A stretch of DNA of 64,000 nucleotides, from NCBI GenBank assembly GCA_004212155.1, contig RXIG01000008.1, positions 1-64,000 on the forward strand, given 5' to 3'. Numbering within the stretch: the stretch's first letter is position 1; each line of letters opens with the position of its first letter. Origin of the DNA: an archaeon. GTDB taxonomy: Archaea; Methanobacteriota_B; Thermococci; Methanofastidiosales; NM3. The notes beneath the pieces were generated by a model. That model made no database searches. It was not told the DNA's origin and saw nothing but the letters and a program-made list of their open reading frames with translations. Position numbers and translations under genes: made by a program. Positions 4,674 through 60,804 of the stretch are shown in pieces.

Positions 4674-5076
4674 CAGGGGAAATAAATATAATATTAATAA
4701 TTTTTAACGGCAAATATATAAAAACATATCGTTTTTTGTAATATAATTTCAAATAATTTTACATGAAAAAAGTTATGATTTAAATTTTTTTAATGAAATT
4801 AATTTTTATTACGTTAATAACCCATCCAGCATACATAGGAATTCCATAGGATAAAGGCTCGTTACGTTCATATAAATGACAAAAAAAATTATAAGACTTA
4901 ATGGATAGTGATAGAGAGAGTAGTCACAGCATGGAAGATATATATGTATAATCTACTGAAATTAAGAATATTATTCCTATGGATAATCCATCCATGGTTA
5001 TGTTTTTTATAGTAATAACGATAGTGTTACTTTGGGAGGAACACCTTCAGACGAAGGTGTGAGAGGAGGAATACAT

Positions 5077-6084
5077 ATCGATGCGGATACGCAACTGATC
5101 ACTGCACTGCACGGCGAAGCAACCGACTTCGTACCGGTGACGTCGGTGACACAGACGGCGACACTCGAACAGATGAAGGCATCGGGTGCTGCATGGCCAG
5201 CCGCCCACACCGACCCACACAAGCTCTATATGCTGGCTAACACCTTCAGGTCGCTGACAGGCATACCCGTCATACGCATACCGTTCGAAATCACCCTAGA
5301 AGCGGAGGCGCTTGGATGCGCCCTCAACATGGGAAAGATGGACAAGACCCCGTACGTGAACGAACCAGTCGGGCACTTACCCGATTCGGTCCCGAGAGAT
5401 GCCACGTCGCTGGGGCGGGTCTCCGTCATACTGGAAGCGCTCGACCTTATCGAGCAGAAAGTGCCACATGACGTTCCCGTCGTGGTGGGCGTGACAGGAC
5501 CGTTCACGCTCGCGGGCCATCTCGCGGGGATCGAGAACCTCGTCAAATGGACGCGTACAGACCCTGATACGGTTCAAGAGTATCTCACTTTGGCCACCAC
5601 CTTTCTGAACGATTATCTTGAATCGTTGGGCACGCGATCCGTTGATGTCGTGTCGATACTTGAACCGAGCGCCTCCACAGATATGATAAGCCCTAGCGCA
5701 TTCAAGCGTTTCGTGATGCCAATGCTCAAGGAATTGGCAGATGCGACAGAGACCACCAAGGTGCTCCATATCTGCGGAGACTGTACCCCGATCCTGGAGT
5801 ACATGGCACAAAGCGGATACAGCGGACTAAGCGTCGAATCGGCGGTAAGCGTGAAGAAGGCGCGTCGCATCGTCAAGGAGTCTGTGTCGCTTGTGGGCAA
5901 CATCGACCCCGTGTCGGTGCTGCTACAGGGCGACCATGACACCGTTGCGGAGGCGACGGAGAAGGCCATACTCGAGGGCATCGACGTCGTGGCACCGGGA
6001 TGCGGACTCGCTCCAGCGACACCCACCGAAAACATCGTTACCATGAGAAAGGAAACCGAGCGCATCGTAAACGAATACCAGTAA
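5077..6084 (+). CDS. mtaA: Methylcobalamin:coenzyme M methyltransferase (MtaA/CmuA family)
   Basis: URO-D-like fold motifs VPVTSVTQT, EAEALGC, GPFTLA, LHICG, APGCG; adjacent to mtaCB. Start uncertain (ATC 5077 after GGAGG, or GTG 5059 / TTG 5032). Confidence 0.88.
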   Translation: MDADTQLITALHGEATDFVPVTSVTQTATLEQMKASGAAWPAAHTDPHKLYMLANTFRSLTGIPVIRIPFEITLEAEALGCALNMGKMDKTPYVNEPVGHLPDSVPRDATSLGRVSVILEALDLIEQKVPHDVPVVVGVTGPFTLAGHLAGIENLVKWTRTDPDTVQEYLTLATTFLNDYLESLGTRSVDVVSILEPSASTDMISPSAFKRFVMPMLKELADATETTKVLHICGDCTPILEYMAQSGYSGLSVESAVSVKKARRIVKESVSLVGNIDPVSVLLQGDHDTVAEATEKAILEGIDVVAPGCGLAPATPTENIVTMRKETERIVNEYQ

Positions 6085-6117
6085 AACGCCTCCCGACCAC
6101 CAAAAAGGGGGAGAAAT

Positions 6118-6915
6118 ATGGCGCTCAAGAAGATTAAGGAAAGAAGCATGGCGTTGGACATTGACCCGGACGATATCCTCGTTAGGTACAATGTCCGACT
6201 CGAAAAGGAGATCACGCCAGAGGAGGCGGCAGAAGAGCTCTACCCGGACGACCCTCTCCTCAAGCCGATAGCACAGGCAGTGTTTGTGGGGGACGAGGAA
6301 GGCGTTGTCGCAGGGCTCGAAAAAGCTATTTCTGAGGGAAGAGAACCGCTCAAGCTCATCGATGAGGCGCTCATCGGCGGGATGAACGTCGTCTCCAAGC
6401 TCTACGACGAGGCTGTCATCTACCTGCCCGACGTGATGCTGTCCTCCGACGCGATGCAAAAGGGCATCGAATATTGCAAGTCGAAGGCAACTTCCGACAT
6501 GAAGCCCAAGGGCACGGTCATCTGCCACGTGGCAGAGGGCGACGTACACGACATCGGAAAGACCATCGTCGTGGCGTTGCTGCGGGCCAACGGCTACAAC
6601 GTCGTCGACCTCGGGCGAGACTGTCCCGTCGAGGAGGTCGTCGAGCATGTTGAGAAGGAACGGCCGCTGATGCTCACGGGCACGGCGCTCATGACAACGA
6701 CGATGTATGCCTTCAAGCACATCAACGACAAGCTCAAGGAGAAGAATCTTGCGCTCCCGTTCGTCTGCGGAGGCGGCGCGGTGAATCAGGACTTCGTCTC
6801 GAAGCTCGAGTTTGGCGTCTACGGTGAGGAGGCGCCCCAGGCGCCGAGAATGGCGGCAAGCATACTGTCTGGAGCCACTGTAGAAAAGCTCAGGGAGGAG
6901 TTCCATAAGCATTAG
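6118..6915 (+). CDS. mtaC: Methanol corrinoid protein
   Basis: ILVRYNV..EKE.TPEEAAEELYP N-terminus; B12 motif EGDVHDIGK; TGTALMTTTM. Confidence 0.95.
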   Translation: MALKKIKERSMALDIDPDDILVRYNVRLEKEITPEEAAEELYPDDPLLKPIAQAVFVGDEEGVVAGLEKAISEGREPLKLIDEALIGGMNVVSKLYDEAVIYLPDVMLSSDAMQKGIEYCKSKATSDMKPKGTVICHVAEGDVHDIGKTIVVALLRANGYNVVDLGRDCPVEEVVEHVEKERPLMLTGTALMTTTMYAFKHINDKLKEKNLALPFVCGGGAVNQDFVSKLEFGVYGEEAPQAPRMAASILSGATVEKLREEFHKH

Positions 6916-6927
6916 GGGGTGACATGA

Positions 6928-8313
6928 ATGGTAAAACGATTCACGACCATGGCATATGACGACCCGGACGAGATGACGTTTGGCGTCGCGAAGGAACCTG
7001 TCAAAGCAGGACTCGGCCTCACGATAGGCGATGGGTTCACGACCCCTGAGATCAACTACGCTCCGCGCCCAGAGACCGCATCGTCAAAGGAGAAGCTCGT
7101 TAAGGAGTACAAGAGCATCACCACCGATATCATGGACCGCATGGTGGCCGTCGGATTCCCAGGCGTGGTGCTCGAGACCGAGCACGTGCAGGAGATGACC
7201 AACAATCCCGAATGGGGTGCGGCCGTCGCCCACGCCCAAAAGGAGATCATGGAAAAGTACCATGACGAGTACGGCATCAACTGCGCCCTCAGGCACACGC
7301 CTGGGGACATACGAGAGGACCGCGACTACCTGCGCCTCAGGGAGGACAAGTACGACACGCTCCTCAAGTCGTTCGAGCTGCTGGCAGAAAACGGTGTCGA
7401 CATGCTCTCGATCGAGAGTATGGGCGGAAAGGAGGTCTTCGACCACGCCATACTCCGTGACGACGTGCCCGGCGTCCTGTTCTCCATCGGATGTCTCGGC
7501 GCCATGGACATGGAGTACATCTGGAAGGACATCGTCAACATCGCCAAGAAGCACAATGTCGTACCGGCAGGTGACACGGACTGCGCCCAGGCCAACACGG
7601 CGATGTTCGTCGCAGGCGGTCTCCTTGACAAGAACCTTGCACACACTCTGGCCATCATCGCTCGAGCCATAGCTGCGAGCAGGACGCTTGTCGCATGGGA
7701 ATGCGGCGCCACAGGCCCGAACAAGGACTGCGGTTATGAGGGAACCATCCTCAAGTCGATAGGCGGACGGCCGATAACCCAGGAGGGAAAGACGTCGACG
7801 TGCGCCCACTCGGACGTCATGGGCAACCTCGTCATGCAGTGCTGCGACCTCTGGTCCAACGAGTCGGTCGAGTACCACGGAGAGTTCGGCGGCACATCGG
7901 TGCAGGCGTGGGGCGAGACACTGGCATACGACTGCACCCTCATGAACGTGGCGCTCAAGACAGGCACCGAAAAGACGCTGCGCGACCTGTTCATGCTCTC
8001 GGACAAGTACCGGGACCCGCAGGGCTACGTGCTGGCATATCCCAACGCATGGAAGGTGGGCAGGGCGATAGTCGAGGACGGAGACGACCTCTACCTGCGC
8101 GCCAAGAACGCGGCGCTCGAGACGTGCAACATCCTGGAGGAGGGCGTCAACGAGGGCCTCAAGCTCACGCGTTTCGAGACCAAGGCGCTGCGCGATGCAA
8201 AGATTGCCCTCGAGGGCCTTCCCGACGACCAGGACACATTCATCTCCGAGAGCCTCGACAAGTACAAGAAAGAGGTCAGGGTGTTCGAGCCGAAGCGCAA
8301 CTACGATCTCTGA
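6928..8313 (+). CDS. mtaB: Methanol:corrinoid methyltransferase
   Basis: PEINYAPRPE, ESMGGKE, GDTDCAQANTAM, KDCGYE, CDLWSNES motifs of MtaB. Confidence 0.97.
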   Translation: MVKRFTTMAYDDPDEMTFGVAKEPVKAGLGLTIGDGFTTPEINYAPRPETASSKEKLVKEYKSITTDIMDRMVAVGFPGVVLETEHVQEMTNNPEWGAAVAHAQKEIMEKYHDEYGINCALRHTPGDIREDRDYLRLREDKYDTLLKSFELLAENGVDMLSIESMGGKEVFDHAILRDDVPGVLFSIGCLGAMDMEYIWKDIVNIAKKHNVVPAGDTDCAQANTAMFVAGGLLDKNLAHTLAIIARAIAASRTLVAWECGATGPNKDCGYEGTILKSIGGRPITQEGKTSTCAHSDVMGNLVMQCCDLWSNESVEYHGEFGGTSVQAWGETLAYDCTLMNVALKTGTEKTLRDLFMLSDKYRDPQGYVLAYPNAWKVGRAIVEDGDDLYLRAKNAALETCNILEEGVNEGLKLTRFETKALRDAKIALEGLPDDQDTFISESLDKYKKEVRVFEPKRNYDL

Positions 8314-8318
8314 TCGAC

Positions 8319-8343
8319 CTCTTCTTTTTTTCTTTTTTTATTT
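8319..8343 (+). terminator. Oligo-T terminator after mtaB
   Basis: CTCTTCTTTTTTTCTTTTTTTATTT immediately after the stop. Confidence 0.55.
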
Positions 8344-8399
8344 CGTGACCAATTATTTATGTAACCTTTCAAGAGATAACACCCCAAGGAGGTAATACC

Positions 8400-10019
8400 A
8401 TCAAGGAAGGCATCGCCATCGACCTCGGGACGAGCGGATTTCGGGCTCAGAGGATAGACCTCGGCTCGGGAGCGATCGCCCGTACAGCCATCACGCTTCG
8501 AAACCCCCTTCCGGGCGCGAACGTGATGGACCATCTTCACTTCGCCGTCACATGGGGTCAGGACACAGCGCACGACCTCGTCGTGCAGGCGCTCATGACG
8601 CTTTTCAATACGCTTGGCGCTACGCCCGGCTCGATCGACCGTATCGCCATCTGCGGCAATCCCATACAGCTCTCGCTCTTTCAAGGCATCCCCATCGACG
8701 ACCTTGCCTATGCGGGCGACAAGAAAAAGGAAAAGTACCACATCACAGATCAGGACCGCTCGGCATCCGTGCGCGACGCCGGCGAGATTGCCGGCATGGG
8801 GGCGTTTGAGGGGTGCGAGCTCCGAGTGCCCCCAGCCGTCAAGCACGAGGTTGGTGCCGATGCACTCGCATTGCTCGTGAAGTCGGGCATGCTCGATTCG
8901 TCCGAGATATCGATCGCCACCGACTATGGCACCAACGCGGAGATGGCGCTCAAGGTCGATGATATCATCTACACGGGGTCTGCAGCCGCAGGTCCAGCGC
9001 TCGAAGGCCAGGAGGTCGCATGTGGTACGCTGGCCAAGCCGCGCGTCGTGTCCGACATCGACTTCGAGGACGGCGCTTTCAGGTCGACGGTGCTAAGTGA
9101 TGACATGGACGAGTGCACAGGTGCGCTCTTCAATCCCATCGACGGTGAGATCTACGAGGAAGGCACGATAACCGCGACGGGCATCACCGGGACGGGGGTC
9201 ATCGCTCTCATTAAGGAGGGAATGGAGACCGAGCTCGTCAAACTGCCCCATATCAAGACACGCCACAAGGCGCTGTTGCTCCATGACGACCTCTACTTCG
9301 ACGAGCACGACCTCGTCGAAGCGGGACGCGCCATCGGCGCCATACGAGCCGGGCACGTCACGCTCTGCGATGCCGCCGGCATCGACGTGAAGGACATCGA
9401 GACGGCCTATATGTCGGGCGCGGCAGGCACGTACATGGATGCCGCCAAGGCACATATGGTGGGCCTCCTTCCGTATGCCGTAAGGGACGTCTATCAAATT
9501 GGCAACACATCCCTTGCCCTTGCGCGCGACGTGCTGCTCTCCGAGGACCGGCTCTGGGAGCTCGAGGACGTCGCACGTTCCGTTCGAGGGTCGCACGTGA
9601 TGTTTGCGACCTCGCCCGCGTTCAAGAAGGCATATATCAACGAGCTGTCCTACTGGGAGGAGGGCATGCCGTTTGAGCGCATGCAGACGATGCTCAAGCG
9701 CCGAGGACTGCCCATGGTCGCAGTCCCCACGACGGACCCGAAGGTGCACCGCATCGTCGTCAAGGACATACCAGACCTCGGAACGGAGGGACTCCGGGTG
9801 CTCGAGCGCACCGGCACGCTCCTCACGATGAAGATCGAGGGATGCACGCTGTGCGGCCAATGCGAGGAGGCCTGCACACACGAAGCCATCGAGCTGCGCG
9901 AGGACGGCACGGTAGTGATACGAAGCGACCTCTGCGACGGGTCGCACTGCCAGAAGTGCATACACGCATGCCCCGAGGAGCTGCTCTGCTGGGAGTGCCT
10001 GGAGGTGATGCCGCGATGA
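8400..10019 (+). CDS. ramA: Corrinoid protein reductive activase (RamA/RACE family, C-terminal ferredoxin domain)
   Basis: GIAIDLGTSGFRAQ, RNPLPGANVMDHL, TDYGTNAEMAL, AAAGPALEG, C-terminal CxxCxxCxxxC; start at ATC 8400 after GGAGGT. Confidence 0.92.
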   Translation: MKEGIAIDLGTSGFRAQRIDLGSGAIARTAITLRNPLPGANVMDHLHFAVTWGQDTAHDLVVQALMTLFNTLGATPGSIDRIAICGNPIQLSLFQGIPIDDLAYAGDKKKEKYHITDQDRSASVRDAGEIAGMGAFEGCELRVPPAVKHEVGADALALLVKSGMLDSSEISIATDYGTNAEMALKVDDIIYTGSAAAGPALEGQEVACGTLAKPRVVSDIDFEDGAFRSTVLSDDMDECTGALFNPIDGEIYEEGTITATGITGTGVIALIKEGMETELVKLPHIKTRHKALLLHDDLYFDEHDLVEAGRAIGAIRAGHVTLCDAAGIDVKDIETAYMSGAAGTYMDAAKAHMVGLLPYAVRDVYQIGNTSLALARDVLLSEDRLWELEDVARSVRGSHVMFATSPAFKKAYINELSYWEEGMPFERMQTMLKRRGLPMVAVPTTDPKVHRIVVKDIPDLGTEGLRVLERTGTLLTMKIEGCTLCGQCEEACTHEAIELREDGTVVIRSDLCDGSHCQKCIHACPEELLCWECLEVMPR

Positions 10020-11044
10020 AGGTTGTCATCATCGGCGGCTTCCTTGGCAGCGGGAAGACGACGACAATACTCACGCTCGGGCGGCTGCTTGGCGAGTCGG
10101 GCGAGAGGGTCGCCATCATCGTCAACGAGATAGGTGAGGTGGGCATCGACGGCGACGTCATCACACGCTACGGCTTTGAGACCAAGGAGCTCACCAACGG
10201 GTGCATATGCTGCAGCCTCAAGCGCGACATGAAGTACACGATACACCAGATGCGCGAGGCCTACGACCCGACATATATCCTCATCGAGCCGACGGGCATC
10301 GCGTTCCCGCTCCAGATCAAGGGCGAGATCGCGCGGATGAATATGGACGATGTCGAGTTTTCCCCCATCGTGACGCTCATCGACGGCACACGATTCAAGC
10401 AGCAGATGAAGGAGACGAAGAACTTCTCGCGAAGACAGATAACGGATGCGGAGGTGCTCTGCATCACCAAGGTGGACCTGATGAAGCCGCTCTATGTCCC
10501 CATCATCGAGACGTCGGTGAAGCAGATGAACCCCTCGGCACACTGCATGACGCTCTCCATGGTGACGGGCCAGGGTCTCGACGAGCTCATCGAACGCCTT
10601 GCCGACGAGAGCGTCGACCGGGCAGACGTGGTACTCGACCAGGATTCGATCGGCGCATCGGGCATAGCGACGCATGCACGCTCATATGTCGTCGATGCGC
10701 CAACGCTTGATGAGAAGACGGCAACTCGCTACGTCGCCGACGTGCTGCTGCATGTGCAAAGGAAGGTCGAGGAGCTCAATCCCGACTTCGTCGGGCACGT
10801 CAAGCTTACGCTGCTCCATCCGGACGTATCGCTTCGCGCAAGCATCACCGCTGCTGCGGACGAGCCGTCTATCGGCGCACTCGACGCCGGCCCAAGCGGC
10901 GAGCCGTCGCTGAAGGTGCTCGTTGCTGCAAGCAACGTGCCGTGGGAATCGCTTGCGGAGATCGCCGACGAGGCGGTGTCAAGGGCTGGAGAAAATCACT
11001 GCATCCGCACGACGCATGCCTTGCACCACGGCCATCGTCACTGA
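10016..11044 (+). CDS. CobW/COG0523 family P-loop GTPase (metallochaperone)
   Basis: GGFLGSGKTT, NEIGEVGID, GCICCS, IEPTG, His-rich C-terminus HALHHGHRH; ATGA overlap with ramA. Confidence 0.9.
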   Translation: MKVVIIGGFLGSGKTTTILTLGRLLGESGERVAIIVNEIGEVGIDGDVITRYGFETKELTNGCICCSLKRDMKYTIHQMREAYDPTYILIEPTGIAFPLQIKGEIARMNMDDVEFSPIVTLIDGTRFKQQMKETKNFSRRQITDAEVLCITKVDLMKPLYVPIIETSVKQMNPSAHCMTLSMVTGQGLDELIERLADESVDRADVVLDQDSIGASGIATHARSYVVDAPTLDEKTATRYVADVLLHVQRKVEELNPDFVGHVKLTLLHPDVSLRASITAAADEPSIGALDAGPSGEPSLKVLVAASNVPWESLAEIADEAVSRAGENHCIRTTHALHHGHRH

Positions 11045-11496
11045 CCAGTGTCTGATACTTGTTCGTTCGCCCCCTCATCCTCGAGTGCCTCAAGGTCCTT
11101 TTTCTTGGAATGCCTGTCGAGCACGAAGACCGCCACGAGGGCGATGAGAAGCAAGGGGATGCCATATTTTAAAAACTGGCTCGGTACGCCCTCTGCCCGC
11201 ACGTTGACCTTGTTCGAGAGGTCGGACTCGCCAGACTCATTGAACGCCGCGACCTGGTAGGTGCGTCTGTTGCCCCCCGATATGTCATCGACAAACGATG
11301 TGGTGCCAGGCGGCAGCTGCCTGTAGCGCATGCCGTCGCGATAGAGCCAGAATCCGTCCTCGTTGTCGTTGGGGTCGGTCCACGTGAGGTGCGCCTCTGA
11401 GTCTACAAGCGTCACATCGAGGTCGTCGGGCGCCTCGAGCGGCCCGGTGCTAAGCAGGAGCATGCAGCACATGAGGGCGATAACGGGGTGCATCAT
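11038..11496 (-). CDS. Small membrane-anchored fibronectin type III domain protein
   Basis: Signal peptide, LTWTD..NEDGF.LYRDG..SFVD..YQVAAFN..GES..SN, C-terminal TM helix. Confidence 0.8.
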   Translation of the reverse strand: MMHPVIALMCCMLLLSTGPLEAPDDLDVTLVDSEAHLTWTDPNDNEDGFWLYRDGMRYRQLPPGTTSFVDDISGGNRRTYQVAAFNESGESDLSNKVNVRAEGVPSQFLKYGIPLLLIALVAVFVLDRHSKKKDLEALEDEGANEQVSDTGQ

Positions 11497-11551
11497 CTCT
11501 TGGTTCGAGAAGATGCTATATAATCCTTTGGATGCAAAGAAAAAAGAGAAG

Positions 11552-12910: not shown

Positions 12911-13115
12911 GAGTACCACCAAAATGAATACATTATATTTCTAACAATTGTTTTTATAAAATTATTGTATTTAAATATATATTTCATGATTTGAAATGAT
13001 AATTTTAATTATGAATAAACAATGAATGGTGTGAAAAGGCTGATCCTCTTGTAATTTTTTCCAAAAATTATAGATTTCATATATCATATGCATTATCATT
13101 GCACGTTCCGAAGCA

Positions 13116-13607
13116 ATGTGCATGGAACACACCTGCACGCTTGGGGACTTCACATCGTTTCTCAGGGTGACCTGCGGATTCGACTTCGACAACGAACGCC
13201 ACACGTTCGGAGAGCGCATAAAACTGCAAAAATATGTATTTCTGGCCCTTAAGATGGGCATGAACGCCGTCGTGCCGCTCGATTACAGCATGTACATTCG
13301 CGGGCCGTACTCGAGCATGCTCGCAGACATCTACTTCAACGGCAAGGAATGGCACCGCTCGCTCTTTTCCACCGACCGATTCGACGTGGCGCGCTATGTC
13401 AGGGCTCTCTCGGACAGGGACACGCTCTGGCTTGAGGTCGCATCGACGATACTTTTTGTCAACGGGCACACGCTCGCTGCCTACGAGGAGCCGCCGACAC
13501 GCGATATGGCGATCGAGCGCGTACTCGCGCTCAAGAGCTACGATCGGGAGACGGTCGGGCGCATCTACGACGATCTGGTGCATGTTGGGCTCATACAGGC
13601 GAAATAG
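13116..13607 (+). CDS. YwgA/SocA(DUF4065)-like winged-helix protein
   Basis: RIKLQKYVFL..YSMYIRGPYSSMLAD..LEVASTILF motif pattern. Confidence 0.55.
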   Translation: MCMEHTCTLGDFTSFLRVTCGFDFDNERHTFGERIKLQKYVFLALKMGMNAVVPLDYSMYIRGPYSSMLADIYFNGKEWHRSLFSTDRFDVARYVRALSDRDTLWLEVASTILFVNGHTLAAYEEPPTRDMAIERVLALKSYDRETVGRIYDDLVHVGLIQAK

Positions 13608-13669
13608 GCATGCCCAAATCATAAAAAACTATATAAGTAATGAGACCCAATCCCACACTACATTGGATA

Positions 13670-14134: not shown

Positions 14135-14266
14135 ATTGATTGAACAAATATATAAAATTTTTGTATAAAAATATAAGTAGTTCAAGAAATAACGAAAATT
14201 TTATATATTATAGCAAAAGAGATAGAGATATACTGTACAATGATAATCATAACGTAGGTGATTGCC

Positions 14267-16192
14267 ATATCAAAAAATATTGTTGAGAAAATAATAGACA
14301 AGCATATCGTTGATGAGAGTGAGCACGAGGTCGGCATACGCATCGACCAGACGCTCACCCAGGACGCCACGGGCACCATGGTCTACCTGGAGCTCGAGGC
14401 GATAGACATCGATTCCGTCAAGACGGAGCTTTCAGTAAGCTACGTCGACCACAACACCTTGCAGTGCGGGTACGAGAACGCAGACGACCACCTCTACCTG
14501 CGAACGATCGCCGACCGGTTCGGCGTCATCTATTCACGACCAGGAAACGGCATCTGCCACCAGATGCACCTTGAACGATTCTCATCGCCAACGAAGACGC
14601 TGCTTGGGTCCGACTCCCACACGCCGACGTGTGGGGGCGTCGGGTCGCTTGCCATCGGGGCGGGCGGCATCGACGTCGCTGCGGCCATGGCGGGCGAACC
14701 GTTCTACATGCCCAGGCCCCGCGTCATGAAGGTCGAGCTCACAGGCGAGCTCCCGCCCGAAAGCGAGGCAAAGGACGTCATACTCCACCTCCTCTCGATA
14801 CTGAGCACGAAGGGCAACGTCGGCTACATCGTCGAGTACGGCGGACCCGGCGTCAAGACGCTCTCGGTCCCCGAACGGGCCACGATCTGCAACATGGGTG
14901 CAGAGCTCGGCGTCACGACATCGATCTTTCCATCCGACGAGGTGACCGAGCGATTCTTCGAGGCGCAAAAGCGCGACAAGGACTACCACAAGCTCGTCGC
15001 GGACAAGGGTGCGCGCTACGACAAGACCGTCGCGATCGATCTGTCAAGCATCAAGCCCATGGTGGCACGACCTCACAGTCCCGATAATGTCGCAACAGTC
15101 GCATCGCTTGCGGGAACGCCGCTGCAGCAGGTCTGCATCGGCTCGTGCACCAACTCATCGCTCTATGACATGGTGGTGGCATACCGCACGCTCAAGGGCA
15201 AGCGCGTGCCGCCGGGCACCGACCTCGTCATCGCGCCGGGGTCGAGGCAGGTGGTGCTCACCATGGAAAAGCTCGGGCTGCTCGAGGAGTTCATCGAGTG
15301 CGGGGCGCGCATCATGGAGCCGACGTGCGGATTTTGCATCGGCAACGGCCAGTCGCCTGCAACAGGCGCCAACACGCTTCGCACCAGCAACCGCAACTTC
15401 CACGGCAGGTCGGGGACGACCTCTGCAGACATCTACCTAAGCGGTGTGAGGGTCGCAGCAGCGTCGGCGCTTGCCGGCGCACTTGCCATGCCCCCTAAGA
15501 TCGATGAGGACGATGAGCTGGTTCGCAAGGCGCGTGACCTCTCGGTGCTCGAGATCGACGACTCGATGCTTGTCCATCCCACGGGAAAGGCAGATGTCGT
15601 CAAGGGGCCAAACATCGGACCACCACCACACGGCACACCGCTTGACGGCGACATCAAGGGCGTTGCCACGCTCAAGGTGGGCGACAAGATCACCACCGAC
15701 GACATCATGCCAGCGGGAGAACGGCTCAAGTTCCGCTCGAACATCGCTCGCTACGCAGAGTTCGTCTTCGAGCACGTCGACCCCGACTTCCACGACCGAG
15801 CGCGCGCGAATCGGGATGACGATATCGCAAATTTCATCATCGCGGGCGTCTCGTACGGACAGGGCTCGTCACGCGAGCATGCGGCCATCTGTCCCGCATT
15901 CCTCGGCGTGCGGGCCGTCATCTGCAAGTCGATCGAGCGCATACACCGCGCCAACCTCCTCAACTTCGGCATCGCCCCCCTCACGTTCGCCGATGAACGC
16001 GACTACGGCTACATCGACGAGGGAGACGAGCTCGAGCTCAAGGACGTGCAACGCGGCATGGAGACGGGCGAGTTCACGCTCTACAATCTCACCAAGGACA
16101 AGAAGATAATCCTCGAGGGAGCGTTTTCCGAACGGGAGGTAGACTACCTCAGGGCGGGCGGAAAGCTCCATGCGATAGGGGGCGGTGCGTAA
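14267..16192 (+). CDS. acn: Aconitate hydratase (single-chain, ~640 aa type)
   Basis: [40 protein letters not shown]; start either ATA 14267 or GTG 14258 (the GTG lies inside the SD). Confidence 0.92.
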
Positions 16193-21851: not shown

Positions 21852-21860
21852 GGTTTCACC

Positions 21861-35143: not shown

Positions 35144-35314
35144 TCACTCATCCGGGCGTACGACGGTAATGGGAAGGACACCCATTTCGAGCTCCTTGAT
35201 CGCTACGCGAATGGAGTCGAAGTCGTCAGTATCAATGAGGATTGGCGCATCCATGGATATCTGCAGGGCCCGTGCGCCTATGACCCGTGCACGCTCGTAT
35301 CTATTCAATCGTAT
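35144..35314 (-). CDS. rpo6: RNA polymerase subunit Rpo6 (RpoK) (not in ORF track)
   Basis: (I)[27 protein letters not shown]...[17 protein letters not shown]; start ATA 35314, alternatives GTG 35323 or TTG 35308. Confidence 0.93.
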
Positions 35315-48503: not shown

Positions 48504-48512
48504 GTGGACACC

Positions 48513-51082: not shown

Positions 51083-51118
51083 GTCACCAGATGGTGACTC
51101 TCTTTTTTCTTCTGTTTT
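51082..51118 (+). terminator. Hairpin plus T-tract terminator
   Basis: AGTCACC-AGAT-GGTGACT followed by CTCTTTTTTCTTCTGTTTT. Confidence 0.6.
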
Positions 51119-51564
51119 CAGTTCTCTAATTCATAGATTTTTTTTCTTTCTTAAAACGTAAAATGAAAGAGTAAGATCATTGAAGATTCATTCATATCAA
51201 TTTACATACGTGGACCTAATCAGGGAGGGACTGTCAGTATAGTCACCACAATATTTGACGATGACACAAAACGAAGTGCGTATCGCTTTAAGCCCGTGCA
51301 CATCGGCATCCACCTTTACCTTCCATCGTCTGACAGAATGAAAAAAGCAATATGGCTCGAAGGCAAAAACAACTTTGGTTTCTGCATCAACTAGCGGTCG
51401 TTTGTGAATCGAGCTAAAAATACCGGGACATGAAGGCGTATCATCATTGCAGAGACATTACATTGAGTTTTTATATGAGTCAGGGATAAGTTTTTTAATC
51501 TAATTTTAGTAAATTATATAGTTATTCATAAAAATAAAATAAGTATTATTTGGGGTGATAAATA

Positions 51565-53787: not shown

Positions 53788-53796
53788 CGGACCAAC

Positions 53797-53830
53797 GCAG
53801 TCCTTTTGGACTGCTATCTTCTCTTTTATA
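53797..53830 (+). terminator. Hairpin plus T-rich terminator
   Basis: GCAGTCC-TTTT-GGACTGC followed by TATCTTCTCTTTT. Confidence 0.55.
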
Positions 53831-53970
53831 TCTGGTCTTGAAAGATCTGTTTCTTCTTTATCATGCCACTGTATGAATCCAATGTTTTTAAAATGGAAAT
53901 AAAAAGTTCTTCGATAAAAATAAGCATGAAACGACTTTAAAATAAATAAAAAAATATTTTTGTAGAAATA

Positions 53971-54759
53971 TCAATCCTTTTCTATCGCATCGATAAGCGT
54001 GAGCTGGTGCGCGCCGATGCACTTGTTGTAATCGAGCTGCGCCTCGACACCGTAGACGTCGCGGATGTTGTCGGGCGTGAGCACCTCCTCTGACGCACCG
54101 CACGAATGGACGCCGCCGTCCTTGAGCAAGAGCAACCGGTCGCAGTAGCGAAGCGAGAGGTTGAGGTTGTGGGATATGATAATCACGACCATGTTGTGTT
54201 CGACGGCAAGGGAGCGCACGAGCTTCATGACCTCGAACTGGTGATTGATGTCAAGCTGTGACGTGGGCTCGTCGAGGAGGAGGACCCGCGGCTCCTGCGC
54301 GAGCGCGCGGGCGATGATCACGCGTTGAAGCTCGCCGCCTGAAAGTTGCGATATCGGCCGCTCAAAGAGATGATCGATCGATGTGAGCCTCATCGACTCG
54401 CGGACGATCGAGATGTCGTGGGCGCCCTCGCGCTGGAATCGGCCCAGGTGCGGGATGCGCCCCATCATGACGACGTCAAAGACGGAAAACGGGAACGTGA
54501 GCGTCGTCGACTGGGGAACGACGCCAAAGACCCTCGCGATACGGGAACGGTCCCATACCGTGACATCCTCGCCATCGAGCGTGATGGCACCGCCCTGGGG
54601 ACTGAGAACGAGGCGCAGGCACCGAAGCAGCGTCGTCTTGCCCGAGCCGTTGGGGCCAACGATGCCAAACACCTCGCCGCTATGCGCGGAAAACGAGACG
54701 TCGCGCAGCACTTTTTTGGTGGGAAACGAGAAGTTGAGGGACGAGACTGAAAGTTTCAT
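53971..54759 (-). CDS. Cobalamin/iron-chelate ABC transporter ATPase (BtuD/FepC-like)
   Basis: GPNGSGKTT, LSGGE.QR, LLLDEPT. Confidence 0.92.
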   Translation of the reverse strand: MKLSVSSLNFSFPTKKVLRDVSFSAHSGEVFGIVGPNGSGKTTLLRCLRLVLSPQGGAITLDGEDVTVWDRSRIARVFGVVPQSTTLTFPFSVFDVVMMGRIPHLGRFQREGAHDISIVRESMRLTSIDHLFERPISQLSGGELQRVIIARALAQEPRVLLLDEPTSQLDINHQFEVMKLVRSLAVEHNMVVIIISHNLNLSLRYCDRLLLLKDGGVHSCGASEEVLTPDNIRDVYGVEAQLDYNKCIGAHQLTLIDAIEKD

Positions 54760-54762
54760 TTT

Positions 54763-55824
54763 TTACCACCCCATGCGCTCCTTGCGCTTTCGCAGGAGAT
54801 AAAGGAAGAACGGCACGCCGAAAAGCGACGTGATGATGCCGACGGGAAGCTCGGCAGGCATGATGATCGTGCGCGCCAGCGTGTCGGTGAGGATCAAAAA
54901 GATCCCGCCAACCAAGACGGAGGCGGGGATGAGGATCTTGTGGTCGGGCCCGACGAAGATGCGGGCGATGTGGGGGATGATGAGGCCGACAAAGCCGATG
55001 ACGCCCGAGACGGCAACGCAGGCGCCCACGGTAAACGCGGTGAGCACGAGTATGATACGCTTGGTCGATTCGACCTTGATGCCGAGGTCGGTCGCGTTCT
55101 CCTCGCCAAGCAGCATGGCGTTGAGCTCGCGGGAGAGCACGTAGAAGAGCGGGACAGCGACGACTATGAGGGGAAGCGTCACCGCGACCTTGTCCCACGT
55201 CGACGCCCAGAGCCCGCCCATCATCCAGAAGACGATGCGCTCGAGCTGCTGGTCGGCAAAGTAGAGCATGAGGGAGACGAGGGCCGAGAAGAACGACGAG
55301 AGCGCGATGCCTGAAAGGAGGAGCGTCTCTGTTGGCACCTTGTTGTTGACCCGCGATATCATGTAGACGAAAAAGACGGTAAGCGTCGCGAAAAGAAACG
55401 CGAAGAACGGCAGGAAGATATAGGCAAGACCGAGATTGACAGCAAGAGCCGCACCGAACGCGCCCCCCGATGAGAGGCCGCAGACGTAAGGGGACGCCAT
55501 GGGATTGCGAAAGAGACCCTGCATGGCACATCCTGAGACGGCCAGGCCCATCCCGACAAGCATACCGAGCAGCACGCGCGGGAGGCGGACGTCCATCACG
55601 ATGGAAGTGTACGAGTGGGGCCACGTCTGCATGACAGAGTCGCCCACGCGCGGTATCTGCATCCAGAAGATGTGCAGGATCGTTGACGGCGAGATCGATA
55701 CCGGTCCGACCATGATGCCGAGGACTGCAACGGCGAACAAAGAAAGGATGAGGCCCACCATGACGGTGAGCCGATACATCCGTACGCTATGGAAGTACGC
55801 TTCGATATCCTGCATCACGTTCAC
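54763..55824 (-). CDS. Cobalamin/iron-chelate ABC transporter permease (BtuC/FecCD)
   Basis: RLPRV, Q.LFRNPMASP, LGEE.A..LG, GVIGFVGLIIPH. Confidence 0.93.
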   Translation of the reverse strand: MNVMQDIEAYFHSVRMYRLTVMVGLILSLFAVAVLGIMVGPVSISPSTILHIFWMQIPRVGDSVMQTWPHSYTSIVMDVRLPRVLLGMLVGMGLAVSGCAMQGLFRNPMASPYVCGLSSGGAFGAALAVNLGLAYIFLPFFAFLFATLTVFFVYMISRVNNKVPTETLLLSGIALSSFFSALVSLMLYFADQQLERIVFWMMGGLWASTWDKVAVTLPLIVVAVPLFYVLSRELNAMLLGEENATDLGIKVESTKRIILVLTAFTVGACVAVSGVIGFVGLIIPHIARIFVGPDHKILIPASVLVGGIFLILTDTLARTIIMPAELPVGIITSLFGVPFFLYLLRKRKERMGW

Positions 55825-57116
55825 TCGAAGTACTCAGGATAAAACCATTTCGCCAGCTGCTCGAGCCCGAGCACGAGACGGGGGTTCGATGTGACCATGT
55901 CGCTCTCGACGGCATAGACCCTGTCGTTGGCAACAGCGGATATCTGGTCCCATCCGCTGCGCGCCTTGATCTCCTCGACGGATGCGCCATACGAGAGCAC
56001 TACGATGACGTCGGGGTCCTCCTGGATGATCCACTCGCTTGAGAGCACCGGGTAGCGCGACTCCTCGTCTGCTGCGATGTTGATGCCGCCTGCCATCTCG
56101 ATGAGCTCGCCGGTGAACGTGTCGGCGTTGAGGCTCTTGAACGGTTGGGACGTCTCGTAGAAGACCGTGGGTCGGTCCTCGACAGGGATCGTGTCCACGT
56201 AGTCGGTGATCTCCGATATGCGCGCCTGCATGTCGCCGATGACTTCCTGTGCGTTCTCCTCGAAGCCAAGGATCGTGCCGAAGAGCCCGATCTCATCGTA
56301 GATGTCGCTGACCGAGGCGGGATTTATCGCCATCACGTTGATGCCGCGCTGCTCGATGTTCTCGATGGCATCGCCGTAGAAGTACCATATGACGACGAGG
56401 TCGGGCTCGAGCTCGATGAGCTTTTCCATGTCAAGCGACGACCCGCTCCCGAGATTAGGAAGGCTGGCGACCTCCTCGGGGTACGTGCTGTACTTGTCGA
56501 CGCCGACGACCTTCTCGCCCGCACCGATGGCAAACATCACCTCTGTGGCGGAGCTTGCAAGCGACACCACGCGCTCGGGCACCTTCCCTATGGTGACCTC
56601 GCGGCCGGCGCCGTCCTCGAACGTGTAGTCGATATAGGTCTCCTCGATCGAAGGCGGCACGAGGACCGCATCGATCACGTGGAGCGTGCCGTTGGTGCAT
56701 TCAATGTCCTGTTCGGTAACAGAGGCCCCCCCTATGGAGAGCGAGCCTGCGGCATTGACCTCGATGTCCTCGCCCTGCAGCGTGGCAAGCGTCTGGGACT
56801 GTGAGATCTTGGATGCCGAGTACGACCCTTCAAGCACGTGATACGTCAATATCTGTTCCAGGAGCGCCGGGTCGGACGCATAGCGCTCGTCTAGAGACTC
56901 GAGCGCGTCGTTGCTTGGCGCAAGAAGGGTGTAGTCTCCCTCCTCGCCAAACACATCATAGAGTCCTGCGGACGTGAGCGCGTCAACGAGCATCGAGAGC
57001 TGCGGGCGCTCCTCGAGCTCATCGGCGATGGTCGTATCGGGGCCGCCCCCGATGCATCCGCCGACAAGTCCCGTCAAGAGGACGATAAGCAAACCAAGTG
57101 TTACAAACTTTTTCAT
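55821..57116 (-). CDS. Lipoprotein substrate-binding protein (BtuF-like) with N-terminal fasciclin (FAS1) domain
   Basis: Lipobox LVGGC; YTLLAPSNDA..ILTYHV..NGTLHVIDAVLVP (FAS1); D..GREV..PERVVSL..EKLIELEPDLV (class III SBP). Confidence 0.9.
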   Translation of the reverse strand: MKKFVTLGLLIVLLTGLVGGCIGGGPDTTIADELEERPQLSMLVDALTSAGLYDVFGEEGDYTLLAPSNDALESLDERYASDPALLEQILTYHVLEGSYSASKISQSQTLATLQGEDIEVNAAGSLSIGGASVTEQDIECTNGTLHVIDAVLVPPSIEETYIDYTFEDGAGREVTIGKVPERVVSLASSATEVMFAIGAGEKVVGVDKYSTYPEEVASLPNLGSGSSLDMEKLIELEPDLVVIWYFYGDAIENIEQRGINVMAINPASVSDIYDEIGLFGTILGFEENAQEVIGDMQARISEITDYVDTIPVEDRPTVFYETSQPFKSLNADTFTGELIEMAGGINIAADEESRYPVLSSEWIIQEDPDVIVVLSYGASVEEIKARSGWDQISAVANDRVYAVESDMVTSNPRLVLGLEQLAKWFYPEYFE

Positions 57117-57393
57117 TGATGTTACCTCCTTGTGATTCATAACACCTTTTGGATACAATATAAATATTTTTCTCAATGGATATGCCATTTTATGGTAAAT
57201 AGTAACACAAAACAAACTAGTTGTTTCAAATAGTAACAAGATTTTGAGAATAATAAATATGAGGGCAGATTCAGCTAATAATATAAAAAGTAACACAAAA
57301 TATAATATTAAAAATAAAACGTGACACGAAGTCGGATGCATGCGCCGCATAGACGATGGCAAGATTTATGTGGTTGCACTGCGAATGTGTGCC

Positions 57394-58248
57394 ATGAACG
57401 TGCTCTTCTGCGGAAACATGAATCACGACATCATACTCGTGGTCCCGCGCTTCCCCGAGTTTCACGAGAAGCTCTCAGTGGAAACGTACTACGAGGGCGA
57501 GGGCGGGTCGGCTGCCAACACGTGCTGGTGGTATGCGGGCCTCGGCGGGAGTGCGCGCATGTGCGGAGCCGTCGGACAGGACGCGCGGGGGGATGCCTGC
57601 GTGCGTTCGCTCGCACACAATGGCGTCGACACGAGCCATGTCGTGCGGGCAGATGCGCCCACCGGTCTCGCCGTCGCCATGTCGTGCGGGCAGGACAAGC
57701 GCATGGTCAAGGTGAACGGCGCCAACGACCATGTGCGCTGCACGCGCGAGGCACTCGGGGACGTCGGCCACCTTCATCTCTCATCGGTGGCAAGAGACGT
57801 GGCAAACGAGGCGATGCGCCTCGCCCGCGACGCGGGCGCCACCGTATCGTGGGACCCTTCGGAGCGTCTCTACGAGGACCTGCTGCCGCTTGTCGACATC
57901 CTCTTCATCAACGAGGACGACCATGCGCGGATGAATGCGAAAGGACACCTGCCTCCGACAGTGGTCGTCACGAAAAATGAAGGTGGCTGTGTCATCAACG
58001 ACACGACCGATGTCCCCTCATACGGATCGGACGCCGTCGACACCACGGGCGCGGGGGATGCGTTCGACGCAGGCTATCTCCACGCACTCCATGCGGGCTG
58101 TGATCCCTGGGAATGTGGCATGTGGGGCGTCGTTTGCGCATCGTTTAATGTCGCGCGCATCGGCGCACGCGACGGGTTCTCAAGCAGGGACGACATCAGC
58201 GCCACCGCACGGCGCATGATCAGGGGCCTGCGTGCATCATCTCGTTGA
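57394..58248 (+). CDS. PfkB family carbohydrate/nucleoside kinase
   Basis: GGSAAN, GAVGQD..G, DTTGAGDAFDAG. Confidence 0.92.
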   Translation: MNVLFCGNMNHDIILVVPRFPEFHEKLSVETYYEGEGGSAANTCWWYAGLGGSARMCGAVGQDARGDACVRSLAHNGVDTSHVVRADAPTGLAVAMSCGQDKRMVKVNGANDHVRCTREALGDVGHLHLSSVARDVANEAMRLARDAGATVSWDPSERLYEDLLPLVDILFINEDDHARMNAKGHLPPTVVVTKNEGGCVINDTTDVPSYGSDAVDTTGAGDAFDAGYLHALHAGCDPWECGMWGVVCASFNVARIGARDGFSSRDDISATARRMIRGLRASSR

Positions 58249-58699
58249 AATCGTCGAATCGTTCGAAGTGCTTGATCGCTGTGAGCTCGGCGTCGAGCAG
58301 ATGGAAGTGTGACGCCTCCATCTCGGAGAGGTAGCGCAGCAGCGCGCTTTCCTCAGCTCCCTCCACCACCTCGGCAAGCGAAGCGTAGAATCTGCGAGCC
58401 GCGTCCTCGCCGCCCTTGGCGAGCTCAAAAAGCTCTGAGAGCGACTTCTCGGGGTCGAAGGCAAGCGATGGAAGCTCGAGCGACTCCATGCGTTCGCTCG
58501 ACACTGTGGCCGAGACGCCCTTTCGCTTCATGAGCGCGGCGATGGCGTTCTTGTGGCGCCCTTCCTCCTCGGCGAGCCCGGCGATCTGCTCCTTCAAAAA
58601 GTACTGGTCCGTCTTGTTCTTGAGGTGAAGGTAGAACGTCTGCGCTTCAGCCTCCGATGTAATAGCGATCTGCAAAATATCCTTTACCGTATATCCCAT
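58220..58699 (-). CDS. Ferritin-like / rubrerythrin-family di-iron protein
   Basis: AI.SE..A..FY, EEGRH, E..A..FY, MEASH. Confidence 0.88.
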   Translation of the reverse strand: MGYTVKDILQIAITSEAEAQTFYLHLKNKTDQYFLKEQIAGLAEEEGRHKNAIAALMKRKGVSATVSSERMESLELPSLAFDPEKSLSELFELAKGGEDAARRFYASLAEVVEGAEESALLRYLSEMEASHFHLLDAELTAIKHFERFDDFNEMMHAGP

Positions 58700-58707
58700 T
58701 TGTTCAC

Positions 58708-59880
58708 CTACCTGTCGAAAAATCCCTTTGGCGTGAGCGGTGACATCCTCCTCAACCGGTCCACGACCGGCGGCAGCTTCTCCAGGAGGAAGTCGATATC
58801 GTCATCGGTGGTCAAGCGGCCCATGTTGAACTGGACCGACCCGTGCGCCTCCTCGTTGGACTGGCCGATCGCCGAGAGCACGTGCGACGCCGAGAGAGTC
58901 TTCGAAGAGCATGCGGAGCCTGTGGATGCGGCGATGCCGTAATTGGAAAGCGAGAGCAGCATCGCTTCTCCCTCTATGTAGTCGAAGAGGAAGTTGACGT
59001 TGTTTGGCACGCGCTGCTGCCTGTCGCCGTTGAGGTGCGTGTCGGGAATGGCCTCGAAGGCGCCGTCGATGAGCTTCGTCTGAAGGTGCGAGAGGTGCGC
59101 GATGTCGCGTGTAAGGCGCCTTTGCGCAAGCTCTGCCGCAGCGCCCATGCCCACGATGCCAGCCACGTTCTCGGTGCCGGAGCGAATGCCCCATTCCTGT
59201 CCGCCGCCATGCATCACCGGCTCGATGCGCACGCCGCGCCTGATGTAGAGCGCGCCCATGCCCTTGGGACCGTAGATATCATTTGACGAAAGCGTGATCA
59301 GGTCGGCACCGCAGTCATTGGCATCGACGAGGATGCGCCCCACGGCAGCGGTCGCATCGGTATGAACGGGGATGTTGCGCTCATGCGCCCGCTCGGCGAT
59401 CTCCTTGATGGGCTGCACGGTGCCTATCTCGTTGTTTGCAAACATTACCGATACGAGGACCGTCTCTTCGGTCATGGCATCCGCCACTGCATCTGCATCG
59501 ACGATGCCGTTTGGCTCCACCGGCACGCGGGTCACCTCGAATCCCTCCTTTTCCAACGCCTTGAGCGGCGTGTGGACGGCCCAGTGCTCGATGTTGGTGG
59601 TCACGATATGGGTGCCGCGCCTCCTTGCGCGGCGTGCCACGCCCTTGAGGGCGAGGTTGTTCGATTCGGTGGCCCCCGACGTGAAGACGACCTTGTCGCC
59701 CTCGCCGGCACCAACAAACGACACGACCTGAGCGCGTGCGGCCTCGACCGCTTCGCGCACTGCATCGCCGTATTCGTGCAGTGAGGAGGGGTTACCAAAA
59801 TGAGTGGTAAAGAAGGGCTTCATGGCCTCGAAGACCTGTTCGTCGACAGGCATGCCGGCCCCGTAGTCGAAGTAGAGCAT
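58708..59880 (-). CDS. iscS: Cysteine desulfurase (IscS/NifS type)
   Basis: GNPSSLH, FTSGATESNN, ANNEIG, RSGTEN, STGSACSS. The usual HK PLP-lysine site reads SSNDIYGPKG. Confidence 0.88.
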   Translation of the reverse strand: MLYFDYGAGMPVDEQVFEAMKPFFTTHFGNPSSLHEYGDAVREAVEAARAQVVSFVGAGEGDKVVFTSGATESNNLALKGVARRARRRGTHIVTTNIEHWAVHTPLKALEKEGFEVTRVPVEPNGIVDADAVADAMTEETVLVSVMFANNEIGTVQPIKEIAERAHERNIPVHTDATAAVGRILVDANDCGADLITLSSNDIYGPKGMGALYIRRGVRIEPVMHGGGQEWGIRSGTENVAGIVGMGAAAELAQRRLTRDIAHLSHLQTKLIDGAFEAIPDTHLNGDRQQRVPNNVNFLFDYIEGEAMLLSLSNYGIAASTGSACSSKTLSASHVLSAIGQSNEEAHGSVQFNMGRLTTDDDIDFLLEKLPPVVDRLRRMSPLTPKGFFDR

Positions 59881-59888
59881 GGTATCAC

Positions 59889-60248
59889 CTAGAAGTATAG
59901 CGTGCCGTCGGCCTCGAGGACAAGCTTGTTGAGCGTAGCGGCGCCGACGATCTCGACGTCGTCGCGAAGCGATCCCTTCTCGAGTCCGAGAAGCTGTGCC
60001 GACTGTTCACAGGCATAAAGCGTCACGCCTGCGTCGACGGCCTGCTGTATCACGTCGGAGAGCGCGGGGAACGAACCCATGCGGACAAATGCCGCCTCGC
60101 CCTTCTGGACGATGGTGAGTCCCTTGATGAGGAAGTATATCGTTGCGTCGACGCCCATGGCCTGGGCGGTCGTGGCGAGGATGAACGGCGCGTAGGTGCG
60201 CTCGGGGGTGTCGATGCCGCTTGTCTGCACGTAGAGCAGCTTCTTCAT
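59889..60248 (-). CDS. DsrE/DsrF-like protein
   Basis: PER.YAPF.LA..A.AM, GVTLYACEQS, IVGAATL. Confidence 0.88.
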   Translation of the reverse strand: MKKLLYVQTSGIDTPERTYAPFILATTAQAMGVDATIYFLIKGLTIVQKGEAAFVRMGSFPALSDVIQQAVDAGVTLYACEQSAQLLGLEKGSLRDDVEIVGAATLNKLVLEADGTLYF

Positions 60249-60481
60249 TTTTCACCGCCCCGCTTGCGGATGACAAACTCCCAGTGGTCATCCTTCTCGG
60301 CAGTCGAGACGAGCTCGTTGCCTGATATGTCGGCCCACGACTCGACGTCGCGCGGCGCCGACGGGTCGTCTGCTCGCAACACGACCGTGTCGCCTTCCTC
60401 GATCCTTTTTATCGCCTGGCCCAGTCTCACGATGGGCTCGGGACAGAACAATCCAATCGCATCGATCTCTTCAGTCGCTAT
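60245..60481 (-). CDS. tusA: TusA/SirA-family sulfur carrier
   Basis: (I)ATEEIDAIGLFCPEPIV..ADDPSA..DV.SW...GNEL; start at ATA 60481 after GGAGG. Confidence 0.88.
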   Translation of the reverse strand: MATEEIDAIGLFCPEPIVRLGQAIKRIEEGDTVVLRADDPSAPRDVESWADISGNELVSTAEKDDHWEFVIRKRGGEK

Positions 60482-60804
60482 GGGAATTCCTCCTTGAGCT
60501 TGCTGCACTCGGCCCATGGGACGCCATGCGGGCATACCTCCTGGTCCCGGTGCATGAGACAGTACATCACACAGATGATGGGCACCATCTTGAGTGAGTA
60601 CAATCGTTGCTTGCCGCACTTCTTGCAGTCGACCACCTCGACCTGGCGCAGCTTGGCGAGCTGATGGGACGTCGCAGAAATCGACATGCCAAGCTCGTGC
60701 GACAGTTCGGTGACGGTACGCGGCTCCTTCCACAGCATGCGTATGATCCGTAACCTGTTTTCGTCCGAGAGTGAGGAGAAAAATGAACCAAGTTCCCGCT
60801 CCAT
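60478..60804 (-). CDS. ArsR/SmtB family repressor with Cys-rich C-terminus
   Basis: FSSLSDENRLRII..L..TVTELS....S.SATSHQL.KLR..G.QRLYSL. Confidence 0.9.
   Translation of the reverse strand: MERELGSFFSSLSDENRLRIIRMLWKEPRTVTELSHELGMSISATSHQLAKLRQVEVVDCKKCGKQRLYSLKMVPIICVMYCLMHRDQEVCPHGVPWAECSKLKEEFP

Follow-up and report, generated by a model that had tools for sequence, protein, structure and literature searches.

Can isoleucine codons serve as the translation starts of conserved archaeal genes? This question is raised by the window considered here, a stretch of 64,000 nucleotides (contig RXIG01000008.1, positions 1 to 64,000, of assembly GCA_004212155.1) from an uncultured archaeon of the order Methanofastidiosales, whose genome is a metagenome-assembled draft of 1.49 Mb (G000). 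Five genes of the window, among them one for an RNA polymerase subunit, carry ATA or ATC at the start position set by a Shine–Dalgarno (SD) sequence. The positions of such codons, their spacing from the SD, their conservation in relatives and their enrichment across the genome are properties of the DNA itself. Judged by these properties, the near-cognate codons AUA, AUC, AUU and CUG are very probably real but weak translation starts that are positioned by the SD. The mechanism proposed is as follows. (i) The SD, of the GGAGG or GGUGAU type, would pair with the 3' end of 16S rRNA. (ii) This pairing would bring the codon 4–5 nt downstream into the P site. (iii) Initiator Met-tRNA would be accepted with one mismatch, so that the protein begins with methionine. 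(iv) Output would be lower than from AUG. Ribosome initiation at the sites, methionine insertion and reduced output are thus predictions of the sequence arrangement.

Five probable start sites in the window and their orthologues

Each of the five strings of SD, spacer and isoleucine codon occurs once in the window, where the preliminary description of this DNA had placed it, as does each of the four canonical sites quoted there for comparison. The encoded proteins match the Pfam families URO-D, RACo, aconitase, RNA_pol_Rpb6 and TusA, and each domain starts a few residues from the proposed start (table 1). For every gene, 40 genomes of relatives were searched and the DNA at the aligned N-termini was inspected; the relatives compared are phylogenetically non-independent. 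Genomes G001–G006 belong to the same family as G000 (f1), families f2–f4 are others of the same order, and f5 is Thermococcales-like. Family f2 is represented by G007, the sister family f3 by G008 (GC 35%), and a Thermococcales-like control of the same class by G034. The closest relative, G001, is a second species of the genus with 95–98% protein identity; its separate assembly is 77% complete and carries substitutions in the flanks of the sites.

In ramA the first canonical in-frame codon lies beyond the DLGTSG ATPase motif. The view that this is the only one of the five genes without a plausible canonical alternative held, as the other four have canonical codons nearby. The aligned ramA codon is ATC in G001, where the frame is closed by a stop eight codons upstream, with no canonical codon between the two. 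It is ATG in 14 orthologues of genus g5, and two g2 orthologues have ATG one codon upstream. RamA N-termini of Methanosarcinales read MRTGIAIDLG and MKQGIAIDLG. A public NCBI protein (P0001; 539 aa, 97% identical to RamA of G000) starts MTEGIAIDLG, in agreement with a start at the ATC of G001. Single near-cognate start calls thus exist in public records, where they stand without comment.

Orthologues of the other genes show the same exchange of codons at a fixed place. In the aconitase-family gene, the aligned codon is ATA in G001, TTG in G002 and ATG in all 21 N-terminus-bearing orthologues outside the genus, behind the same GGTG motif. The rpo6 codon is ATA in four of the seven family genomes (G000, G001, G002 and G006) and ATG in G003 and G005; outside the family, TTG occupies it at 16 g5 loci and GTG at three g7 loci. 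For tusA, the two family orthologues found (G003 and G005) have ATG behind GGAGG; no tusA orthologue was found in G001 or G002. The preliminary description had proposed that the isoleucine codon sits where homologues have Met1, and ATG, TTG or GTG at the aligned codon bears this out for ramA, aconitase, rpo6 and tusA. For mtaA, G001 has the same ATC, and the ATG of distant homologues lies 0–3 codons upstream. Its suggestion that sister orthologues might switch between ATG, ATA and ATC also proved apt, aconitase reading ATA/ATA/TTG/ATG behind the same SD. In the remaining family genome, G004, the SD-defined start of rpo6 reads GGTGA-TTCA-ACG; this ACG departs from AUG at the second position, and sister genomes carry ATA or ATG there.

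Assembly or sequencing errors, or decaying pseudogenes, are an obvious concern in a metagenome-assembled draft of 28 contigs that is 89.8% complete. The near-cognate codon is nevertheless common to G000 and G001 in four genes (ATC in ramA and mtaA, ATA in aconitase and rpo6), and sequencing error is excluded because this independently assembled species keeps the same codons between substituted flanks. Such codons recur in other genera as well, namely in purP, atpD and rpo6, the reading frames are intact and conserved, and rpo6 and atpD (described below) are core genes; errors or decay are an extremely improbable source of the pattern. Oil-field and subsurface metagenomes have yielded public contigs of related populations, with at most 0.36 of sampled words in common; these show no difference at three start codons among 40 of 595 difference rows, which neither confirms nor contradicts the codons.

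A different objection is that a nearby in-frame canonical codon is the real start and that ATA, ATC or ATT is ordinary isoleucine. A GTG does lie three codons upstream in aconitase, rpo6 and the PanK-like gene introduced below, and six upstream in mtaA, while TTG is a candidate in rpo6 and also in tusA; the resulting N-terminal lengths fall in the range of homologues. None of these GTGs, however, is preceded by a separate SD at usable spacing. They belong to the SD itself: in rpo6 the GTG is within it, and in aconitase it is so too, right after an in-frame TAG. Relatives, moreover, have ATG or TTG at the same distance from the SD, with the GTG out of frame or before an in-frame stop. Thus the aconitase spacer of G002 is one base shorter, which puts the GTG out of frame, and the GTG in the rpo6 SD is out of frame in G002, G004 and G006. 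In G006, an in-frame stop five codons upstream of the rpo6 ATA removes every canonical alternative. The objection is inapplicable to ramA and to four further genes, purP, atpD, LigD_N and a lipoprotein gene. Canonical starts are accordingly improbable as the general explanation.

Table 1. Coordinates of proposed start sites, coding sequences (CDS) and initiation-related genes. Positions without a contig label refer to the window.
Feature	Position	Strand	Sequence or start	Remarks
mtaA-like SD	5065..5072	+	GGAGGAAT	6 contiguous matches to anti-SD complement
mtaA-like (URO-D, MtaA/MtbA-type) CDS	5077..6084	+	GGAGGAATACAT-ATC, from ATC 5077	in-frame GTG 5059 six codons upstream lacks a usably spaced SD
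ramA SD	8388..8395	+	GGAGGTAA	7 contiguous matches (AGGAGGT)
ramA (RACo-type corrinoid reductive activase) CDS	8400..10019	+	GGAGGTAATACC-ATC, from ATC 8400	first in-frame ATG/GTG/TTG is GTG 8523, codon 42
aconitase-family SD	14256..14262	+	AGGTGAT	
aconitase-family CDS	14267..16192	+	GGTGATTGCC-ATA, from ATA 14267	in-frame GTG 14258, three codons upstream
rpo6/rpoK SD	35324-35320	-	GGTGA	
rpo6/rpoK CDS	35144..35314	-	GGTGATTCCT-ATA, from ATA 35314	56 codons + stop; in-frame GTG three codons upstream, TTG two codons downstream
tusA-like SD	60493-60486	-	GGAGGAAT	
tusA-like CDS	60245..60481	-	GGAGGAATTCCC-ATA, from ATA 60481	nearest canonical in-frame codons 9 codons upstream, 10 downstream
purP-like			GGTGGTAAT-ATC	next canonical codon 55 codons downstream
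LigD-phosphoesterase gene (LigD_N)			GGTGATCCG-ATC	next canonical codon 34 codons downstream
atpD			AGGAGG-N7-CTG	next canonical codon 37 codons downstream
Lipoprotein			ATC	looser list; start there yields KKRLLL signal peptide
PanK/Fumble-like ATPase			ATT	looser list; in-frame GTG 3 codons upstream, part of SD
aIF5B	81-1850	-		590 aa
aIF1	C14:12603-12812			
Initiator tRNA	C17:61006-61082			anticodon CAT
eIF2-gamma-like paralogue	C14:35011-35955	+		315 aa

Further genes and genome-wide spacing

Further genes were sought independently of the original list, by coding potential upstream of the first canonical codon. The gene set came from a home-made hexamer-based caller applied to the whole 1.49-Mb assembly, which gave 1429–1444 genes. 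This screen recovered ramA and three new genes, purP-like, LigD_N and atpD; a looser list added the lipoprotein and PanK-like genes. Under a strict rule, by which no canonical codon occurs up to 10 codons past the coding onset, 11 of 1411 genes qualify, five of them with an SD; in four of these five, an ATC or CTG stands at 13 nt. A usable canonical start is missing from ramA, purP, atpD and LigD_N in G000, and also from rpo6 in G006 and the lipoprotein gene in G001.

Two of the new starts are held throughout the family. The purP-like gene has ATC in G000, and every one of the other five N-terminus-bearing family genomes has ATA, four bases behind GGTGA (ATA or ATC in 6/6), as against ATG in all 23 orthologues outside the family. 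In atpD, 7/7 family genomes have CTG at an offset of 13 nt, although each of the seven has a different codon after it; outside the family, the corresponding codon of G009 is ATG and g5 starts two codons later. Other sites change quickly. The lipoprotein start is ATC in G000 and G001, ATG in G002, and TTG in G004 and G006, and the PanK-like start is ATT in G000 and ATG in G002, G003 and G006. No orthologue of the LigD_N gene was found in five family genomes. Long-held sites (atpD CTG, purP ATA/ATC, rpo6 ATA/TTG/GTG) suggest that low or stoichiometric output may have been selected, and quick flips among ATG, TTG, ATA and ATC between close species suggest tolerance of weak starts. The A-type ATPase contains one D subunit per three B subunits.

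Two of the starts are close to the end of an upstream gene, which raises the question of coupling: after termination, a ribosome might reinitiate at a restart codon whose identity matters little. The ATA of tusA overlaps the TAG stop of the upstream reading frame, and its orthologues show the classic ATGA overlap; atpD overlaps the 3' end of atpB, its CTG preceding the atpB stop by about 20 nt. Both genes nevertheless have a well-placed SD. Coupling cannot explain the other nine sites, because these follow intergenic regions, which are AT-rich and in several cases contain TATA-like boxes. Even for tusA and atpD, then, coupling is an unlikely account of the codon. At tusA the overlap (window 60478-60481, minus strand) is ATAG in G000 and the usual ATGA in G003 and G005, start and stop having changed together.

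In total, ten cases in G000 are well supported and about six more are candidates, or approximately 0.7–1% of genes. Initiation of this kind is therefore rarer than the 'routine' use first proposed. The proposed repertoire of AUA and AUC is too narrow, as CTG and ATT occur too, and the habit also reaches a sister family. These candidates are ThiN (C5:11737), which has ATC and whose orthologues align from residue 1, MscS (C10:94341), and sites at C17:11411, C7:30136, C24:9334 and C9:77836. Several others were dropped. A PurF-like gene (C28:10873) has an upstream ATG giving MCG as its true start. The orthologue of an amino-acid permease (C1:60759) in G002 aligns from residue 8, which makes an ATG ten codons downstream its probable start. 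Eight sites had ATG immediately before or after the near-cognate codon.

The spacing of these starts matches that of ordinary genes. In the enrichment set, made up of SDs with at least six matching bases near gene starts and with offsets measured from the SD anchor, ATG starts of G000 peak at 13–15 nt. This corresponds to 4–6 nt after GGTGA, the distance that had been read from the canonical genes of the window. The eleven near-cognate sites all have offsets of 13 or 14 nt, with 5–8 contiguous SD matches. In-frame ATA, ATC, ATT and CTG were then contrasted with other non-canonical codons at 13–15 nt and at control offsets of 16–21 nt, by one-sided Fisher test (table 2). G000 was sampled whole, G008 and G034 over their first 800 kb and G007 over 400 kb. 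A whole-genome scan for 5-mer SDs was swamped by matches in coding regions and was dropped in favour of this gene-based scan.

Table 2. Near-cognate versus other non-canonical in-frame codons behind SDs.
Genome	Genes	Optimal, 13–15 nt	Control, 16–21 nt	Odds ratio
G000 (f1)	1429	24 vs 84	35 vs 530	4.3, p=1.5e-6
G008 (f3)	750	13 vs 47	24 vs 268	3.1, p=0.004
G007 (f2)	327	2 vs 29	13 vs 134	0.7, not significant
G034 (Thermococcales-like)	803	7 vs 89	57 vs 564	0.8, not significant

The genome-wide tabulation that the preliminary description had called for thus finds ATH and CTG enriched at optimal spacing: in G000 they make up 24/108 non-canonical codons there and 35/565 at control offsets. G008 shows the same. 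Orphan starts of this genome, behind GGTGAT plus 3 nt, include those of genes for an AA_kinase (ATA), an NTP_transferase (ATC), a RadB-like protein (ATT) and a ThiF protein (ATA), and the Pfam domains of these four begin at residues 1–12. No excess at SD-optimal offsets occurs in the first 800 kb of the control G034. None was seen in 400 kb of G007 either, a small sample in which about 1–2 strict cases would be expected from the rates in G000 and G008. The habit, called lineage-wide at the outset, is seen in family f1 and in the sister family f3 of the same order, and it is apparently a property of the lineage and not of G000 alone. Among SD-positioned canonical starts, TTG is common in the two genomes with the habit (20/96 in G008, 17/187 in G000) and rare in the controls (9/242 in G034, 0/47 in G007).

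Several considerations weigh against the interpretation of these codons as SD-positioned starts. In G000, five of the genes (mtaA, aconitase, rpo6, tusA and PanK-like) have an in-frame canonical codon within 2–10 codons, and because of this proximity a GTG or TTG may be the true start in some of them. The candidate list was selected for SDs, which makes the statement that the codons are always behind a strong SD partly circular. In the crude codon table, ATH and CTG are as frequent at 10–12 nt as at 13–15 nt, and many ATC codons at SD-optimal spacing are spacer codons directly before ATG; this noise is the reason why the contrast with 16–21 nt and the control genomes were needed. Reviews, so far as represented by the available text of PMC7531240, give AUG, GUG and UUG as the archaeal starts, and aIF1 is reported, in the part of PMC6237735 available, to discriminate against non-AUG codons.

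Candidate causes in the initiation machinery

A trans-acting change in aIF1, aIF1A, aIF2 or the initiator tRNA might relax stringency globally and let start codons drift neutrally. Such a change is compatible with weak, SD-positioned near-cognate starts and extends that interpretation to their cause, for which it is a tentative candidate. Turnover at the same site is fast, as in the aconitase series given above, the lipoprotein gene (ATC/ATC/ATG/TTG/TTG) and rpo6 (ATA/ACG/ATG). The functions of the affected genes are unrelated, and the enrichment occurs in two families and is absent from the Thermococcales-like control. On the other hand, only about 1% of genes are affected, and atpD CTG and purP ATA are kept across three genera, which resembles selection rather than drift.

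Forty of the 41 genomes contain aIF1. The RRRFGK motif of loop 1 is kept throughout the order, which speaks against a lesion there; in Pyrococcus, residues R31, Y32 and K34 of aIF1 bind the 30S subunit and mRNA, according to the available text of PMC6237735. Strand beta-1, just before loop 1, has T or S in all f1 genomes and Y or F in other families, and the proteins of genera g1 and g2 carry a basic C-terminal extension with an RKRR-like end; both features favour an altered factor. The aIF1 of the control G034 starts VPRIV, resembling the MVP start of Pyrococcus abyssi aIF1 in the same source.

More divergent is aIF1A (PF01176). It scores 36–57 bits in the family (G001–G006), as against 70–88 bits in 34 genomes of other families, and occurs in two copies in four of the six (G002–G005). 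In the G000 assembly it was found neither by Pfam nor in a search started from the G008 protein. Similarly, a bona fide aIF2-gamma was not found in the assemblies of G000 or G001, which are 89.8% and 77% complete, and is present in G002–G006. These absences may be assembly gaps. The alpha and beta subunits of aIF2 are present in G000. Its contig C14 also encodes a paralogue that combines EF-Tu domain 2 with the C-terminal domain of eIF2-gamma and has no recognizable GTPase P-loop; weak counterparts of this protein occur in G001 and G004–G006. In the window, aIF5B is the first complete gene; it has the P-loop GHVDHGKTT and an ordinary GTG/ATG-type start region.

The initiator tRNA of G000 is canonical, with A1:U72, three G:C pairs and anticodon CAT. 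No initiator-like tRNA with an isoleucine or leucine anticodon is among the 33 tRNAs found in the incomplete assembly, and tRNA-Ile(GAT) is a normal elongator tRNA. Within the 64-kb window, neither Rfam nor a tRNA scan gave any match. One position is unusual. The anticodon loop CCCAUAA has C33 in all initiator tRNAs extracted from f1 (7/7) and f2 (5/5), and U33 is present in 10/10 from f3, f4 and f5. C33 occurs in some eukaryotic initiator tRNAs. As a cause of the habit it was rejected, since f2 has C33 with no near-cognate starts seen in its sample and G008 has U33 with the habit.

The same genome limits every other candidate. G008 shows near-cognate starts, yet its aIF1A scores 77 bits, its initiator tRNA has U33 and its aIF1 has F in strand beta-1, so that nothing tracks the trait. 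The proposed inspection of aIF1, aIF2 and initiator tRNA has thus yielded differences specific to f1 but none that follows both habit-bearing families. Divergent aIF1A is the sole factor-level lead, and it cannot account for G008. A possible but doubtful picture is of an order with a looser start-codon checkpoint that touches about 1% of genes, including those for RNA polymerase subunit K, A-type ATPase subunit D and PurP, with its cause in the factors, for example divergent and duplicated aIF1A.

Relation to known systems

A literature search found no paper on conserved AUA, AUC, AUU or CUG starts of main open reading frames in archaea, or on start codons in this lineage. The closest parallel is bacterial. 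Conserved AUU and AUA starts of Staphylococcus aureus and Bacillus are described for infC, cvfC1, ccpN and citZ, and in S. aureus AUU and AUA starts, placed behind extended SDs, reach about 10% of the output of AUG (PMC13009471, as far as its available text goes). The same text cites AUU starts of Escherichia coli infC and pcnB. Common to the staphylococcal system and the present one are a near-cognate codon at Met1, a strong SD at a fixed short spacing and conservation of the weak codon in relatives; the lower output measured there is to be expected here. The bacterial system uses IF3 and fMet-tRNA and comprises, in that account, four genes, whereas the archaeal one employs eukaryote-type aIF1, aIF1A and aIF2 and extends to at least ten genes in 1.49 Mb, CTG and ATC included. 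As with infC and pcnB, a weak start is predicted to limit translation of specific genes. The weak infC start of E. coli is part of a feedback loop via the fidelity factor itself. Autoregulation of this type is not indicated here, because the gene for the fidelity factor aIF1 itself starts at ATG, as it does in all 23 genomes of the order examined.

Near-cognate initiation has also been met in archaea of another kind. Ribosome profiling of Haloferax volcanii placed about 30% of putative alternative initiation sites at near-cognates of AUG, and the authors set these aside to limit false positives (PMC7261190, available text). Unlike the present starts, those sites are, in that text, alternative or internal and not conserved as main starts of core genes. 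Most haloarchaeal transcripts are leaderless. Eukaryotic near-cognate initiation, which is policed by eIF1, provides a third comparison. It shares with the archaeal case the homologous factors e/aIF1, e/aIF1A and e/aIF2, Met-tRNAi and the single-mismatch codons, as judged from the available text of PMC6237735. In this archaeon it is the SD that would position the codon. Eukaryotic ribosomes, by contrast, scan and rely on Kozak context.

If the sites are used, start selection by aIF1, aIF1A and aIF2, common to archaea and eukaryotes, would be more permissive in some archaea than has been assumed, and natural factor variants would become available to test what sets stringency. Weak starts would then give archaea a means of setting subunit ratios, as for ATPase D versus B; the weak start on rpoK recurs across lineages. 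There would be practical consequences as well. In metagenome-assembled archaeal genomes, gene finders restricted to ATG, GTG and TTG would cut such genes short or miss them, at the cost of the ATPase phosphate-binding motif of RamA and of 34–55 residues of PurP and LigD_N. Metabolic reconstructions of methanogen-related lineages would be distorted by the truncated genes.

The ramA gene has a local context of its own. Window positions 5077-10019 hold the mtaA-like gene, two further genes and ramA, which form a methyltransferase operon. Apart from G001, the best database matches of RamA are from Methanosarcinales, at 58–62% identity, and orthologues from its own order reach 41–49%. The operon may have been acquired horizontally, in which case the ATC start would have arisen after transfer.

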